A DNA stretch of 54,664 bases from an uncultured Bacilli bacterium (GTDB lineage: Bacteria; Bacillota_I; Bacilli_A; RF39; UBA660): assembly GCA_910586635.1 (NCBI GenBank), contig CAJUJA010000001.1:1-54664 (forward strand), in the 5' to 3' direction. The position numbers were made by a program, and so were the translations under genes. The notes under the pieces were generated by a model, which made no database searches, was not told the origin of the DNA, and saw only the letters and a program-made list of their open reading frames with translations. Of this stretch, positions 4,518 through 8,419 are shown in pieces. Each line of letters starts with the position of its first letter. The first letter of the stretch is position 1.

Positions 4518-5126
4518 ATGAAAGATAGAGAAACAGAGGAGAAAACATATTCTAGGAAGGTTATTATCTCTCTTATAGTGATTACCATTTTAGTTTTTAC
4601 AGTTATTAGTATTTCTTTTACAGCTTTTGTAAAGCAAGAACAGGTAAAACACTCCAATGAAGATATTGAAGGAAATGTAAGTATGACATATACAGAAAGT
4701 AAAAATGGTATTTTTATTGAAAATGCATCGCCTATTAGTGATGAAGTGGGTAAAACTTTAAGTGCACCAGGAGAATATTTTGATTTTACAGTAAGAACTA
4801 CTGTTGTGAAAAATCAACCTATTACTTATGAAATTACAGCTATTAAGGAAAATGATTCTACTATACCAGATCAAGATGTAAAGGTTTATTTAGAAAAGCA
4901 GGTAAATGGAACTTATGAGCAGTTAGTAGCACCAACAGCATTTCAACCTATTAAAGAAAAAACCAATATAGGCTCTCCAATTAATTCAATGGTATTAAAA
5001 AGGGTAAAATCAGAAAAAAGTGGTTTTGAAAATTATCGTTTAAGAATGTGGGTCAATGAAAATGCTGTGATTAAGGATGTTAAAACTTATGCAATTAAAA
5101 TTAATGTATATGGAAAAATTGTATAA
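4518..5126 (+). CDS. secreted TasA-like/SipW-substrate-like protein, paralog 1
   Basis: N-terminal TM/signal ending ...ISFTAFVKQ. Shares the blocks SMTYTE, P(I/T)xDEVG, EYFDF, YLEK and LRMW with 5765..6379. Strong RBS GGGAGG. Confidence 0.6.
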   Translation: MKDRETEEKTYSRKVIISLIVITILVFTVISISFTAFVKQEQVKHSNEDIEGNVSMTYTESKNGIFIENASPISDEVGKTLSAPGEYFDFTVRTTVVKNQPITYEITAIKENDSTIPDQDVKVYLEKQVNGTYEQLVAPTAFQPIKEKTNIGSPINSMVLKRVKSEKSGFENYRLRMWVNENAVIKDVKTYAIKINVYGKIV

Positions 5127-5140
5127 AGAGGAGAATTAAG

Positions 5141-5755
5141 ATGGAAGAAAATAAAGAAAGAAAGAAAAGAATAATTCCTATTTTGTTATTTATTTTAGTA
5201 TTGATCGTGGTTGTCGTTGGAGGAACTTATGCTATATTTTTCTATGGGAAAAGAGGAGATACAAGGAATGTGATTAGTACGAGGGCTATAAATTGTACTT
5301 TTAATGAGGGACCGTTAATTTCTATTAGATCTGCTTTCCCAATATCGGATGAGGTAGGAAAAAAATTGTCAGCTGGATCTATTGATGGTTATGATCAAGG
5401 ATATTATGATGCTACACTTAGTTGTGAATGTAAGGGTACTAAGGACTCAAATTGTAGAGGGAGTTATGAGATTTATGCTATTAATACTTCTACAGGTGCT
5501 AAAATAGATGAGCAGTATATTAAAGTTTATATAACAGATGGGGAACAAACAGAGCAAACATTAGGTGGAGTTACGACCTTTAAGTCTTTAACAGATTCCA
5601 GTGTAAATTCAAACGGAAAGTTGATTTATAGAAATTCTTTTACTAATTCTTTTTCTCAAAAAATAAGATTAAGATTTTGGATTTCTAAAGATTATCCTGT
5701 TAGTGAAGAAAGTTTAACTTTTAAAGCTAAATTAGGTGTCGAAGTTAGTGAGTAG
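5141..5755 (+). CDS. secreted TasA-like/SipW-substrate-like protein, paralog 2 (Cys-containing variant)
   Basis: Signal ...VVVGGTYAIFFYG resembles the TasA-type GGTxAxF signal. Shares PISDEVGK and RLRFW with the flanking paralogs. Has five Cys, four of them (C95, C97, C105 plus C52) absent from the paralogs. Confidence 0.6.
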   Translation: MEENKERKKRIIPILLFILVLIVVVVGGTYAIFFYGKRGDTRNVISTRAINCTFNEGPLISIRSAFPISDEVGKKLSAGSIDGYDQGYYDATLSCECKGTKDSNCRGSYEIYAINTSTGAKIDEQYIKVYITDGEQTEQTLGGVTTFKSLTDSSVNSNGKLIYRNSFTNSFSQKIRLRFWISKDYPVSEESLTFKAKLGVEVSE

Positions 5756-5764
5756 GGTGATAAA

Positions 5765-6379
5765 ATGGAACAAACAGATTCAAAGAAAATGTTATTATCA
5801 GTATTAGGAATTGCGATTTTAGTTGTAGCAGTAGTTGGTATTTCATATGCAGTATTTACCTTTACTTTTCGGTCAAATAAGGAAAATGTAGTAAATACAG
5901 GAACGATTTCTATGTCATATACGGAGGGTACTAATAATGTTATAACAATTACAAATGCGATGCCTACAACAGATGAAGTAGGAATGAGGCAAAAAGAATA
6001 TTTTGATTTTAATGTTTCTTCTGAAATCATGGGATCGACGCAAATTAATTATAAAATTATTGCTAGAAATATTACATCGGATAGTAAAGAGCAACCATTA
6101 GATGGAAAATATGTAAGACTTTATTTGGAAAAAAAGAAAGGTAATCAATATCAACAAGAGTTAGCTCCTACAAGTTTTAGTTCTTTAGATATGCATAAAG
6201 GTAACCCTAATGAAAGAATATTATATCATAATGGGAATTTTGTAAACACAACGGCTCAGAAAAAAAACCAATCGCATGAGTTTATCCTAAGAATGTGGTT
6301 AGGATCTGATTACCAGAGTGATGAAGTAGAAAGAACATTTAAAATAAGGGTAGATGTTCAAGCTGATATGGCGGAATAA
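5765..6379 (+). CDS. secreted TasA-like/SipW-substrate-like protein, paralog 3
   Basis: Signal ...VVGISYAVFTFTF. Homologous to paralog 1 across its length (ISMSYTEG, PTTDEVG, EYFDFNV, YLEKK, LRMW). Confidence 0.6.
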   Translation: MEQTDSKKMLLSVLGIAILVVAVVGISYAVFTFTFRSNKENVVNTGTISMSYTEGTNNVITITNAMPTTDEVGMRQKEYFDFNVSSEIMGSTQINYKIIARNITSDSKEQPLDGKYVRLYLEKKKGNQYQQELAPTSFSSLDMHKGNPNERILYHNGNFVNTTAQKKNQSHEFILRMWLGSDYQSDEVERTFKIRVDVQADMAE

Positions 6380-6382
6380 AAG

Positions 6383-6404
6383 AAGAGTTATCACTCTTTT
6401 TTTG
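6383..6404 (+). terminator. intrinsic terminator after the three-paralog operon
   Basis: aagagt-tatc-actctt hairpin followed by a T run. Confidence 0.55.
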
Positions 6405-6469
6405 TTGGAATTTTCCTCAAACCATGGTATTATATACTTAGTATAGAATAATAGGAGGTGGACTTTTAC

Positions 6470-7216
6470 GTGGATGCAACCATGGATGAATTTAATCAGG
6501 ATGAAAGATCCAAAAAATCAAATAAAAAAATCATTCCAGTGATCCATAAAATATATCAATTATTATCTAAAATATTTTTATATTTTTTAGTTTTAGTTTT
6601 GGTAATAATTATGATACTATTCGCCTTATATTTTATTGATATTCATAAGAATATGAAAAATGGGGTTACTAAAAGACCACTGTTTGGAGCCTATATAATT
6701 ATTAGCCCTAGTATGGTTCCTACTATTAATGTAGAGGATGCTATTTTAATTCAAAGAAAGGAAGCTAATGAGTTAAAAGTAGGGGATATTATCACTTTTT
6801 TATCTAGTGATCCTAGGTATTCTGGTTTGACAATTACCCATAGAATTGTCGGAATAGAAAAGTCGAAAAAAGGTGATTTATTTTTTAGAACAAAGGGAGA
6901 TAATAACAACTCCGAAGATGCTACTTTGGTTTCCAATAAGAATATTTGTGGAAAAGTGATTTTTAAAATTCCTAAAATTGGATATTTACAACAACTTTTA
7001 ACTAACGTTTATGGATGGTTATTTATTATCATTATACCTTGTGTAGGACTTGTAATATATGATATTGTAAAATTATCAAAATCTATAAAAAAATCATCTG
7101 GTTCCAATAAAAAAAGTGATAAAAACAAAGAGCAAAAAGAGTATATTGAGTTTATTAATATAAGGGAAGATAAAAAGGAAAAGGATAAAAAAGATGATGA
7201 CATCGAAGTCATTTAA
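6470..7216 (+). CDS. sipW: SipW-type (ER/archaeal-type, Ser/His) signal peptidase I with a long charged C-terminal tail
   Basis: SPSMVPT (catalytic Ser box), ITHRIV (His box), TKGDNN (GDN box), and N- and C-terminal TM segments. The frame is open from 6458, but that GTG overlaps the AGGAGG RBS (6453-6458), so GTG 6470 or ATG 6482 is the likelier start. Confidence 0.8.
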   Translation: MDATMDEFNQDERSKKSNKKIIPVIHKIYQLLSKIFLYFLVLVLVIIMILFALYFIDIHKNMKNGVTKRPLFGAYIIISPSMVPTINVEDAILIQRKEANELKVGDIITFLSSDPRYSGLTITHRIVGIEKSKKGDLFFRTKGDNNNSEDATLVSNKNICGKVIFKIPKIGYLQQLLTNVYGWLFIIIIPCVGLVIYDIVKLSKSIKKSSGSNKKSDKNKEQKEYIEFINIREDKKEKDKKDDDIEVI

Positions 7217-7233
7217 AAGAATATGGAGGGAAT

Positions 7234-7926
7234 ATGAAAAAATTATTGATAGAGTATTCTAATATTATTGCATATACAGTTACAGGATTGGTATTTGGGT
7301 TTGGTTTTTTCTTACTATTTTTAAATTTTTATCATTATCGTAACGTGAATGAAACTTATATAAAACAGGATTCAGAAATGAAAATTGGTCAAGAATTAAA
7401 GAATAAATTAAGTTTAATTACAGAGAACATATCTGGATTTGACATGAATACTTATAGAGGAAGTGAAGATCCTTATAGTTTGTCTAGTGTGAAATCAAGA
7501 TTAGATATTTGTACGAAAAAGATTAATACAGAGGAGTTTAATACCCTTCTCTCTAGGAAAAATATTCATATGAAAGATGTTTATGATATGCAACAATTTT
7601 ATCAGGTGCAAATTTCTAATGAATGTTTGGTTAAACAGTTATATGAGATTTCGTTAACAGAAAATAATAGGTTGAATATATCCTCCCTACCAACTGTTGC
7701 CCCTTTTTTTGAAAGTCATATTAATCAATTAATTAATTCTACAGATTATGTTCAGAAAGTAATTAAGAATAATAGTAGTTACTACTTTAATAGTGAGGTC
7801 TCTAAAGTTGATATTTATAATCCTGTTAAGGATAGTTATTATAGTATTTTAAATGACTATGTTTCTTCCATTAATTTTATTTATGATTTGTCTGTTTGGT
7901 ATAAAAATGTAGTAGGAGAGGTGTAA
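7234..7926 (+). CDS. N-terminally anchored extracytoplasmic protein, function unknown
   Basis: One TM (IIAYTVTGLVFGFGFFLLFL), then about 190 aa of polar, helical sequence. RBS GGAGGG. Tightly packed after sipW. Confidence 0.5.
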   Translation: MKKLLIEYSNIIAYTVTGLVFGFGFFLLFLNFYHYRNVNETYIKQDSEMKIGQELKNKLSLITENISGFDMNTYRGSEDPYSLSSVKSRLDICTKKINTEEFNTLLSRKNIHMKDVYDMQQFYQVQISNECLVKQLYEISLTENNRLNISSLPTVAPFFESHINQLINSTDYVQKVIKNNSSYYFNSEVSKVDIYNPVKDSYYSILNDYVSSINFIYDLSVWYKNVVGEV

Positions 7927-7927
7927 G

Positions 7928-8419
7928 ATGAAAAAAATATTAAATGGGTTGTTTTTTATATTAAAATGGATTTTACTACTTTCCTCTTTTGCTGTTACTT
8001 TTTATATTGTTTTGTCTATGTATGATAGAGTAAATAAGAATCTGATGGAGTCCATCAGTTTATTTATCCCTTATGTCCTTATTTTGATATTATTTATGAT
8101 TAATATTATTTTTAAACAGAAGAGTGTAAGTAAAAATTTATTTTATAATTTAACTTGTTGTTTGGTATTTGCTACTATTATAGTGGTGGGAATAAGATCA
8201 ATTATGGATAAGAATATGATATTAAATAAAATTATGGGTTATGGGATTAATTTTTCTTATTTTAACGATTTTTTAGCCTTTATGAAGATATTACTATATG
8301 GGTTATCTGTTGGAAATATTTTCTTTATGATTCATGAAAAAGAGGATCATCCTGAAAGTACTTTAGTAAAAAAGATTAAAATTAATTCTGATAATGACTC
8401 TAATATAGAAGTTTTATAG
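7928..8419 (+). CDS. polytopic (about 4 TM) membrane protein, function unknown
   Basis: Its start is 1 nt after the upstream stop (translational coupling). Four hydrophobic spans. Confidence 0.5.
   Translation: MKKILNGLFFILKWILLLSSFAVTFYIVLSMYDRVNKNLMESISLFIPYVLILILFMINIIFKQKSVSKNLFYNLTCCLVFATIIVVGIRSIMDKNMILNKIMGYGINFSYFNDFLAFMKILLYGLSVGNIFFMIHEKEDHPESTLVKKIKINSDNDSNIEVL

Follow-up and report, generated by a model that had tools for sequence, protein, structure and literature searches.

A conserved SipW-type signal peptidase locus and a large unannotated family of exported proteins in uncultured gut Bacilli: a candidate donor-strand fibre system

What would a gut bacterium build with three unannotated exported proteins, a signal peptidase encoded beside them and two membrane proteins that match no family model? 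The locus that raises this question occupies positions 4518–8419 of a 54,664-nucleotide stretch of DNA from an uncultured Bacilli bacterium (GenBank assembly GCA_910586635.1, contig CAJUJA010000001.1); the whole stretch is called the window here. Its six genes, all on the + strand, encode three tandem paralogs (P1, P2 and P3), a signal peptidase I (SPase I) of the endoplasmic reticulum (ER)/archaeal type represented by SipW of Bacillus subtilis, and the membrane proteins ORF5 and ORF6. An earlier note on this DNA had proposed a SipW-processed extracellular fibre or matrix; its coordinates for the six open reading frames (ORFs) match the ORF list exactly. That the locus pairs a dedicated peptidase with cognate exported surface proteins is very probable. 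At roughly 50% we place the fuller reading, in which an operon shared across a lineage of uncultured gut Bacilli makes a surface fibre or matrix held together by donor-strand exchange, with subunits processed by the SipW-type enzyme.

The type of the peptidase is clear. The archaeal/ER-type signal peptidase I model TIGR02228 matches residues 44–204 with 105.8 bits (cutoff 51.85), and Pfam Peptidase_S26 gives 24.4 bits against 22.9. The SPSMVPT, THRIV and GDNN boxes described earlier are present. In an alignment of 58 sequences, comprising the window protein and 57 orthologs, their Ser, His and Asp (SPS85M, TH128R, GD148NN) are invariant in 57–58; G147, N150 and D154 are also invariant or nearly so. 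His occupies the place of the P-type Lys box, which yields a Ser-His(-Asp) set instead of a Ser-Lys dyad, and the residues presumably have the catalytic roles that published mutagenesis assigned in SipW. With TIGR02228 above its cutoff and the boxes invariant, the earlier assignment to the SipW (ER/archaeal, Ser-His) type stands. The score on the Bacillus SipW equivalog NF046067 is 101.2 bits, below the cutoff of 190; the enzyme is thus of the same type as SipW and not an ortholog-level match. It has two transmembrane helices (39–57 and 188–206) and a Lys-rich C-terminal tail. Its true start is probably GTG at 6470, 11 nucleotides after AGGAGG at 6453–6458.

The gene set is conserved as a unit. 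A scan of GTDB species representatives yielded 175 related stretches, from which 78 distinct loci were kept; matches to the window proteins were tabulated over 82 loci. The order tatD, one to seven genes of the subunit family (FAM), peptidase, an optional gene x181, ORF5, ORF6, rsmA is found in about 55 of the 82, from many species-level metagenome-assembled genomes (MAGs), and every complete locus holds the signal peptidase gene. Every one of the 78 loci comes from an uncultured gut MAG. The records mostly bear the labels Bacilli bacterium, Tenericutes, Candidatus Onthousia or Clostridium sp. CAG:451, with Muribaculaceae, Clostridiales, Clostridia or plain 'bacterium' on a few. The description of the genes as inserted between tatD (3707–4462) and rsmA (8517–9308) is right as to position. 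It does not hold as a recent insertion, since the locus is ancestral at this site to the whole clade. Recent mobile insertion was ruled out on the ground of synteny across about 55 genomes; the computed base composition is even throughout the region, which gives no sign of foreign DNA. In the relative L007 (7521–11716, − strand, in a circular 1.52-Mb MAG), a transposase gene block interrupts the operon behind the second subunit gene, and this insertion-sequence event explains why the locus had appeared to be without machinery genes.

The three paralogs belong to a large family. Pairwise BLASTP gives E values of 8e-26 (P1/P3), 1e-28 (P2/P3) and 1e-9 (P1/P2), so the paralogy first seen by eye in these tandem proteins of about 200 residues lies far beyond chance. 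The sequence blocks attributed to all three are shared only in part: P-x-x-DEVG and LR(M/F)W occur in P1–P3, whereas SMxYTE, EYFDF and YLEK are confined to P1 and P3. P2, the most divergent of the three, has INCTFNE, GYYDA and VYITD at the corresponding places and keeps P-I-S-D-E-V-G and L-R-F-W. It also has four Cys (in INCTF and LSCECKGTKDSNC), with none at these places in P1 or P3; judging from the sequence, extracellular disulfide bonds may be peculiar to this one type of subunit. A protein database clustered at 90% holds 216 relatives of P3, all of about 200 residues, none with a Pfam domain or an informative name. An exhaustive search with the FAM profile, covering 1.84 billion representatives (clusters at 50% identity), matched 5707 proteins at E ≤ 1e-3, 2691 at E ≤ 1e-10 and 512 at E ≤ 1e-30. 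Pfam and NCBIfam have no model for P1–P3 and gave nothing consistent among 44 relatives scanned singly, and tblastn of P3 against plasmids found no match.

Conservation was counted over 119 non-redundant members in P3 numbering. A near-invariant motif, G-[IV]-[ST]-[YF]-A|[AV]-F (the bar marking the predicted cleavage site), ends the hydrophobic N-terminal segment, with Ala at −1 in 116 of the 119, Ser or Thr at −3 in 112 and Phe at +2 in 104. The most conserved N-terminal positions are accordingly G25, S/T27, Y/F28, A29, A/V30 and F31, and the S/T-Y/F-A|A/V-F segment satisfies the −3/−1 rule for signal peptidase I. Conservation continues behind the site at N41 (113/119), T45, G46, M50, Y52 and E54 (108/119), then at A65, P67, D70, G73, K74 (88/119), F80, D81, F82, Y96, Y120 and L121, and near the C-terminus at L175, R176, M177 and W178. 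The signal ends given for the window proteins, SFTAFV (P1), GGTYAIF (P2) and GISYAVF (P3), were read correctly. Two of them carry regular sites, the canonical G-G-T-Y-A|I-F in P2 and G-I-S-Y-A|V-F in P3. P1, with a hydrophobic helix at residues 15–33, has the degenerate motif S-I-S-F-T|A-F with Thr at −1, which makes it a candidate poorly cleaved or uncleaved, anchoring subunit.

The TasA signal of B. subtilis that the earlier note compared with this motif proved to be given correctly. The TasA sequence used is identical to residues 28–261 of PDB 8AUR, and the chain there begins at A28, so that mature TasA starts after GGGTWA and cleavage falls at GGGTWA|AF. The small-aromatic-Ala-x-Phe motif is near-invariant in FAM and stands in the same register as T-W-A|A-F of TasA.

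A structural prediction adds a second line of evidence. The AlphaFold2 model of P3, based on a 44-sequence alignment, has a mean predicted local distance difference test (pLDDT) score of 83 and a predicted TM-score (pTM) of 0.71. It comprises a helix (residues 4–27), a stretch with pLDDT below 50 (28–39) and an all-beta sandwich of about ten strands (39–202) that is of high confidence from about residue 61. The beta-sandwich ectodomain expected for the paralogs is therefore predicted for P3. Averaged over ten-residue blocks, pLDDT is 42 for residues 31–40, 55 for 41–50 and 64 for 51–60. This least confident part of the monomer model holds the most conserved residues of the family: F31, N41, T45, G46, M50, Y52 and E54. 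In the matrix protein BsaA of Clostridium perfringens, residues 28–38 are disordered in the monomer model, whereas multimer models show them as a strand within the adjacent subunit (PMC11580942); the TasA N-terminus likewise becomes a strand only in the polymer (PMC9674648). A conserved yet low-confidence N-terminal stretch is a lead for donor-strand exchange, not proof of it. Foldseek comparison of the P3 model with the PDB returned weak, generic matches to jelly-roll and immunoglobulin (Ig)-like sandwiches with a TM-score of at most 0.31 on the query, among them Bd1399, birnavirus VP2, CBM22/27, ephrin-receptor domains and, with donor-strand complementation, the PapG pilin domain (3ME0_B; probability 0.99, query TM-score 0.30, target TM-score 0.44).

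Several results weigh against the fibre reading. Most concern kinship with TasA and its superfamily, to no member of which homology could be shown. The 50 best Foldseek matches in the PDB include no entry of that superfamily, neither TasA nor AbpA nor threads. The TasA/camelysin model PF12389 is unmatched by P1–P3 and reached by one of 44 relatives at E 0.023, and the NCBIfam TasA model NF046066 is likewise unmatched by P1–P3 and reached by one of 44 at E 0.041. The FAM profile, searched against all PDB sequences, found only a Sulfolobus islandicus pilin (6NAV, E 3.9); the hydrophobic helix accounts for this match, which was not accepted as a relationship. Direct alignment of FAM with TasA by hhalign covers 58–65 columns over the signal and first strands, with E 0.0043 for the single sequence and 1.4e-4 (52% probability) for profiles, in the register VVGISYAAF..N.ITTGTISM..E...N.P against VGGGTWAAFND..N.FAAGTLDL..E...NLKP. 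When mature regions only are compared, the score is 15.7 (E 0.19). This lies within the controls, 15.4 for reversed TasA and 8.4–19.7 for 20 column shuffles, and is thus no better than chance, which locates the detectable similarity in the signal peptide. Homology of the mature domain to TasA was rejected as unproven on these controls. Even the signal escapes the existing model: TIGR04088, which describes SipW-cognate signals over 34 positions with a cutoff of 19 bits, does not match P1–P3 and gives 14.5 and 13.6 bits in two relatives, against 42.1 bits for TasA as control; the likeness [ST]-[YFW]-A|[AV]-F is visible only by direct alignment. The earlier note had seen no similarity to TasA beyond the signal, and the mature alignment, PF12389 and Foldseek all bear it out. 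The locus is like SipW/TasA in the logic of its arrangement and in its cleavage motif, and membership of the TasA family is not demonstrated; that it operates in the manner of SipW/TasA can reasonably be inferred. Two further points concern processing. At least one relative's genome also has an ordinary Peptidase_S26 signal peptidase, which may process the subunits instead, and the hydrophobic segment of the signal is so long, hydrophobic and conserved that a permanent membrane anchor would fit it too.

This last point leads to a different picture, a non-polymeric coat. Here the paralogs and the adhesin fusions described below would be held in the membrane by a signal-anchor helix, either uncut or released as monomers, and the sandwich would act as a stalk or spacer. 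The 19-residue Kyte–Doolittle mean of 2.8–3.1 suits a transmembrane anchor, as does the unusual conservation of the segment; weak recurrent matches to anchor-type N-terminal models (FliL, P110 N-terminus) go in the same direction, and the long members of the family lack a C-terminal anchor, so that their retention must come from the N-terminus. Near-invariant small residues at −3 and −1 followed by Phe are, however, hard to account for if nothing is cleaved, and no complete locus is without its dedicated peptidase. One to seven gene copies, with a terminator behind the subunit block, resemble an operon of major and minor subunits, and it is not obvious what the conserved, unstructured N-terminal segment would do in a monomer. 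We consider such a coat rather unlikely.

A variant that overlaps with the donor-strand fibre makes the subunits extremely divergent TasA/BsaA relatives that exchange strands and then lock them. N41 of the donor strand and Lys74 of the acceptor subunit would form an intermolecular isopeptide bond, with Glu54 as catalyst. All three positions are among the conserved ones listed above, and the N41/E54/K74 ('NEK') set is complete in 168 of about 295 FAM genes in the loci, including P1 and P2; it is incomplete in P3, which has no Lys at position 74, a residue present in 74% of the family. The spacing is similar to that of N35/E56/K74 in BsaA (PMC11580942). The hhalign alignment sets N41 and E54 opposite conserved Asn and Glu of the TasA family in the right register, sub-threshold matches to TIGR04088 and to the BsaA model TIGR04090 occur, and archaeal threads use isopeptide locks as well. 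The sequence similarity loses its significance when the signal peptide is removed, and the TIGR04090 match scores 12.8 bits where the cutoff is 60. About one member in five has Met or Arg in place of K74, and TasA has the Asn and Glu yet forms no isopeptide bond (PMC11580942). On balance a locked polymer of this kind appears unlikely.

The helix followed by a beta domain also recalls type IV pilins of the archaeal kind, in which the hydrophobic helix would be kept as the filament core. Weak matches to Pfam Pilin_N occur in six of 44 members (best E 0.0071), and the sole PDB sequence match was the S. islandicus pilin. The Pilin_N matches are below cutoff and driven by the hydrophobic segment, the class III signal (G/A at −1, F at +1, E at +5) is missing, and the model places a low-confidence linker between helix and sandwich. 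The gene content is decisive. About 55 loci contain only tatD, subunits, peptidase, x181, ORF5, ORF6 and rsmA, with no sortase, prepilin peptidase, ATPase or platform gene. Gene content and motif together led us to discard a type IV pilus, a reading that the gene content effectively refutes.

The donor-strand fibre gains a further element from proteins encoded outside the core locus. Among the best 150 of the 5707 representatives, many are 300–1743 residues long and carry the FAM module at residues 1–200. The long members retain the G-[IV]-[ST]-Y-A-A-F site, and 128 of 146 fit a loose pattern. Downstream of the module lie Big_2 domains, Listeria–Bacteroides repeats (Flg_new) and BspA-type LRR_5 repeats. 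A C-terminal LPXTG with hydrophobic tail occurs in none of 56 long family members, so the N-terminal module is the only candidate means of surface retention, acting either as a built-in part of a polymer or by way of a helix that stays uncleaved. The fusion genes are often solitary. The orphan gene for P0186 (FAM with LRR_5) adjoins transposases, and its contig belongs to the assembly that contains the core locus L047; other long orphan fusions (L083 7936–9885, L084 7385–9334, L085 8291–10063 and L086 10001–12652) have LRR_5, cadherin-like or Big_2 domains, and some of them adjoin transposases. In the MAG Lapin-012__bin84, family genes lie on at least 12 contigs. Many long members, including P0146, P0158, P0164, P0175, P0187, P0198, P0203, P0209, P0211, P0218, P0223 and others, end in a recurrent C-terminal motif, approximately G-V-R-P-V-x-x-L-K-S-x-V-x-I-x-x-G-D-G-T-x-x-x-P-Y.

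How would a cleaved fibre stay on the cell? A candidate tether is the product of x181, a protein of about 180 residues encoded between the peptidase and ORF5 in about 46 loci (for example L001 11583–12128) and absent from the window, L005, L016, L050, L042 and L049. A phmmer search with x181 retrieves FAM genes, which identifies it as a divergent paralog of the family. The equivalent of the cleavage motif reads A/T-T-S-M/I-L-W-Y (for example ATSMLWY), with Leu at −1 in most lineages. By the −3/−1 rule, Leu at −1 should block signal peptidase I. Loci without x181 hold an ordinary FAM paralog with a degenerate site: S-I-S-F-T|A-F in window P1 and its L005 ortholog, VATFLLF in L016. The degenerate site where x181 is missing suggests that each locus may keep one poorly cleavable member, and we infer that such a member would tether the structure to the membrane.

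The two membrane proteins that follow are equally constant. ORF5 has one transmembrane segment and ORF6 four, and a single nucleotide separates the ORF5 stop from the ORF6 start. ORF5 always comes after the peptidase or x181. It has an N-terminal transmembrane helix (11–29) and two Cys, C93 and C131, that are invariant in 40 aligned orthologs; its AlphaFold2 model is an all-alpha extracytoplasmic bundle (pLDDT 82.6, pTM 0.75) for which Foldseek found no neighbour in the PDB (best E 0.26). In ORF6, N6, P48, N59, R90, D94, Y124 and L126 are invariant in 36 orthologs. Neither set of orthologs has a consistent match in Pfam or NCBIfam. The ectodomains of TapA and of DUF5305 proteins are described as beta-sandwiches, and neither of them is matched by ORF5 or ORF6 in sequence or by the ORF5 model in fold, so the view that the accessory proteins are not TapA-like is upheld. 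In L001, four-nucleotide start/stop overlaps link peptidase, x181 and ORF5. From the strict co-occurrence with the peptidase and the tight gene spacing we argue that ORF5 and ORF6 work together with the enzyme as its membrane partners, putatively as accessory subunits or as a platform for assembly or anchoring.

A hairpin directly behind P3 separates the subunit genes from this machinery. The earlier note had placed a terminator at 6383–6404. The consensus terminator scan did not flag that site, which is too A/U-rich; folding does give a weak A/U-rich hairpin with two G–C pairs (−10.8 kcal/mol, z = −3.4), followed by U7, and a hairpin with U-run stands right behind the last subunit gene also in the diverged loci L003 and L005. 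It is probably a leaky intrinsic terminator dividing highly expressed subunit genes from machinery genes.

The following mechanism is proposed for the donor-strand fibre. (i) P1–P3 would enter the membrane by signal recognition particle (SRP)/Sec insertion through their long, very hydrophobic N-terminal helix. (ii) The locus peptidase would cut behind [ST]-[YF]-A. (iii) The cut would free an N-terminal stretch of about 12 residues ([AV]-F-[TS]-[YF]-[TS]...G...N) ahead of a beta-sandwich of about 165 residues. (iv) As in TasA and BsaA, this stretch would serve as donor strand in the sandwich of the neighbouring (preceding) subunit, and a hetero-polymeric fibre or matrix would result; in the BsaA model, SipW acts at the membrane after strand exchange (PMC11580942). 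(v) Long adhesin-repeat proteins encoded elsewhere in the genomes would join the fibre via the same N-terminal module. (vi) A paralog with a non-cleavable or poorly cleavable site would tether the fibre, x181 (Leu at −1) in most relatives and possibly P1 (Thr at −1) here. (vii) ORF5 and ORF6, conserved together, would act as membrane partners of the peptidase, and the leaky terminator would keep the ratio of subunits to machinery high. A bolder form of this scheme can be put forward tentatively, as a possibility below even odds: a very large, unrecognized family of Gram-positive fibre subunits, either independent of TasA or diverged past it, with strand exchange coupled to the signal peptidase, x181 or P1 as tether and dozens of plug-in adhesins. 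ORF5 and ORF6 would then be subunits of a Sec11-like peptidase, a counterpart of the eukaryotic signal peptidase complex.

Comparison with known systems places the locus beside several of them and inside none. The B. subtilis tapA-sipW-tasA operon (5OF1/8AUR) also encodes an ER-type peptidase together with secreted beta-sandwich substrates, the sandwich being predicted here. As in TasA, a small-aromatic-Ala|x-Phe site precedes a conserved N-terminal stretch, and the mature subunits are of about 175–230 residues. Unlike that system, the mature domains here have no detectable sequence homology to TasA, which is not among their best structural neighbours, and the peptidase falls under the SipW equivalog cutoff. 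B. subtilis has one major subunit, whereas one to seven paralogous subunits are found here; TapA is missing, and its place is taken by two novel membrane proteins, joined in relatives by a divergent paralog whose site is predicted to resist cleavage. The sipW-bsaA-bsaB-bsaC operon of C. perfringens (PMC11580942) is similar in combining SipW with several paralogous matrix subunits. BsaA shares an N-terminal segment that is disordered in the monomer and is its proposed donor strand, and most FAM members have similarly spaced Asn, Glu and Lys. It differs in that TIGR04090 is not matched here and the Lys is missing from P3, and the present locus has no von Willebrand A (VWA) protein such as BsaC and no type IV pilus genes nearby.

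The TasA-superfamily loci of AbpA, AbpX, threads and Tafi (PMC9245690; bioRxiv 10.64898/2026.01.04.697558) provide further parallels: major and minor subunits, a dedicated SPase I, accessory membrane proteins, and adhesin or tip proteins that include the subunit module. Their subunits are described as having a jelly-roll core. They differ in that the accessory proteins here are not DUF5305, the SPase has two transmembrane helices and not ten, FAM shows no detectable link to those families when its hidden Markov model (HMM) is run against PDB sequences, and the hosts are gut Bacilli with reduced genomes. Chaperone–usher pili (PapG/PapD, 3ME0) follow the same logic of an incomplete Ig fold completed by a donor strand, with tip adhesins built of a pilin module and an adhesin domain. 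In the present case there is no chaperone, usher or outer membrane, the adhesin domains lie C-terminal to the module, and the structural match is weak.

Systems that combine a dedicated SPase I and donor-strand subunits with minor subunits, tip proteins and membrane proteins in accessory roles are thus already known (PMC9245690, PMC9674648, PMC11580942, bioRxiv 10.64898/2026.01.04.697558). New are the large unannotated subunit family, the families of ORF5 and ORF6, the paralog whose site should not be cleavable, the adhesin fusions that lack LPXTG, and the host clade; a description of the system was not found in the literature searched. SipW-type peptidases with donor-strand fibres (TasA, BsaA, archaeal Abp, threads, Tafi) are emerging as a cross-domain route to biofilm matrices and pili. 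If the proposal is correct, the principle extends to a clade of uncultured gut Bacilli with reduced genomes. It would explain how adhesins are displayed without sortase signals in abundant gut organisms, and would offer structural biology a new pilin family, while an ER-type signal peptidase would gain two new candidate partners. Current family databases miss the subunit family despite its 5707 representative clusters; it would then be justified to give the subunit, ORF5 and ORF6 models of their own in Pfam and NCBIfam.

Table 1. Features of the signal peptidase locus, in window coordinates.
Feature	Positions	Strand	Evidence
P1, FAM paralog	4518–5126	+	ORF, 202 residues; FAM HMM 213 bits; ribosome-binding site AAGGGAGG upstream; motif, hydropathy
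P2, FAM paralog	5141–5755	+	ORF, 204 residues; FAM HMM 131 bits; BLASTP; motif
P3, FAM paralog	5765–6379	+	ORF, 204 residues; FAM HMM 231 bits; motif; AlphaFold2 model
Hairpin and U7	6376–6405	+	Sequence; fold energy; same position in L003 and L005
ER/archaeal-type (SipW-like) signal peptidase I	6458–7216	+	TIGR02228; Pfam Peptidase_S26; conserved boxes; transmembrane segments
ORF5	7234–7926	+	230 residues; one transmembrane segment; orthologue alignment; AlphaFold2 model
ORF6	7928–8419	+	163 residues; four transmembrane segments; orthologue alignment

The genomic setting invites one more interpretation, namely that the product is a coat, crust or appendage of the spore, which would be compatible with the other readings. 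The sporulation-related genes spoVT, yabG, veg, spoVG, yabP and yabQ lie in the neighbourhood. In B. subtilis, metG-tatD-(yabE)-rsmA-yabG-veg-spoVG is ordinary conserved Bacillota gene order, so adjacency to sporulation genes is no evidence of co-regulation. TasA is called 'Spore coat-associated protein N' in PDB 5OF1/5OF2, and these MAGs have kept genes for sporulation (CotZ in L086 is one). A promoter for a sporulation sigma factor was not identified at the locus, and the LRR_5, Big_2 and Listeria–Bacteroides fusions point to adhesion to host or surface by vegetative cells. A role in the spore is quite improbable.

Other features of the window were recorded in passing. A T-box leader (RF00230, 111 bits) lies at 1595–1800 (+), upstream of metG (1833–3344). 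Between metG and tatD there is a small hydrophobic ORF of 61 residues (3468–3653, +), kept in L001 (6281–6457) with 58 residues; neither version matches a family. Farther downstream, a 1513-residue ORF at 33400–37941 (+) combines an FHA domain with two FtsK/SpoIIIE ATPase domains, as in an EssC-like type VII secretion ATPase. It sits between the L10 leader/rplJ region (32310–32938) and rpoB/rpoC (40657–47909), an unusual site for a secretion ATPase.

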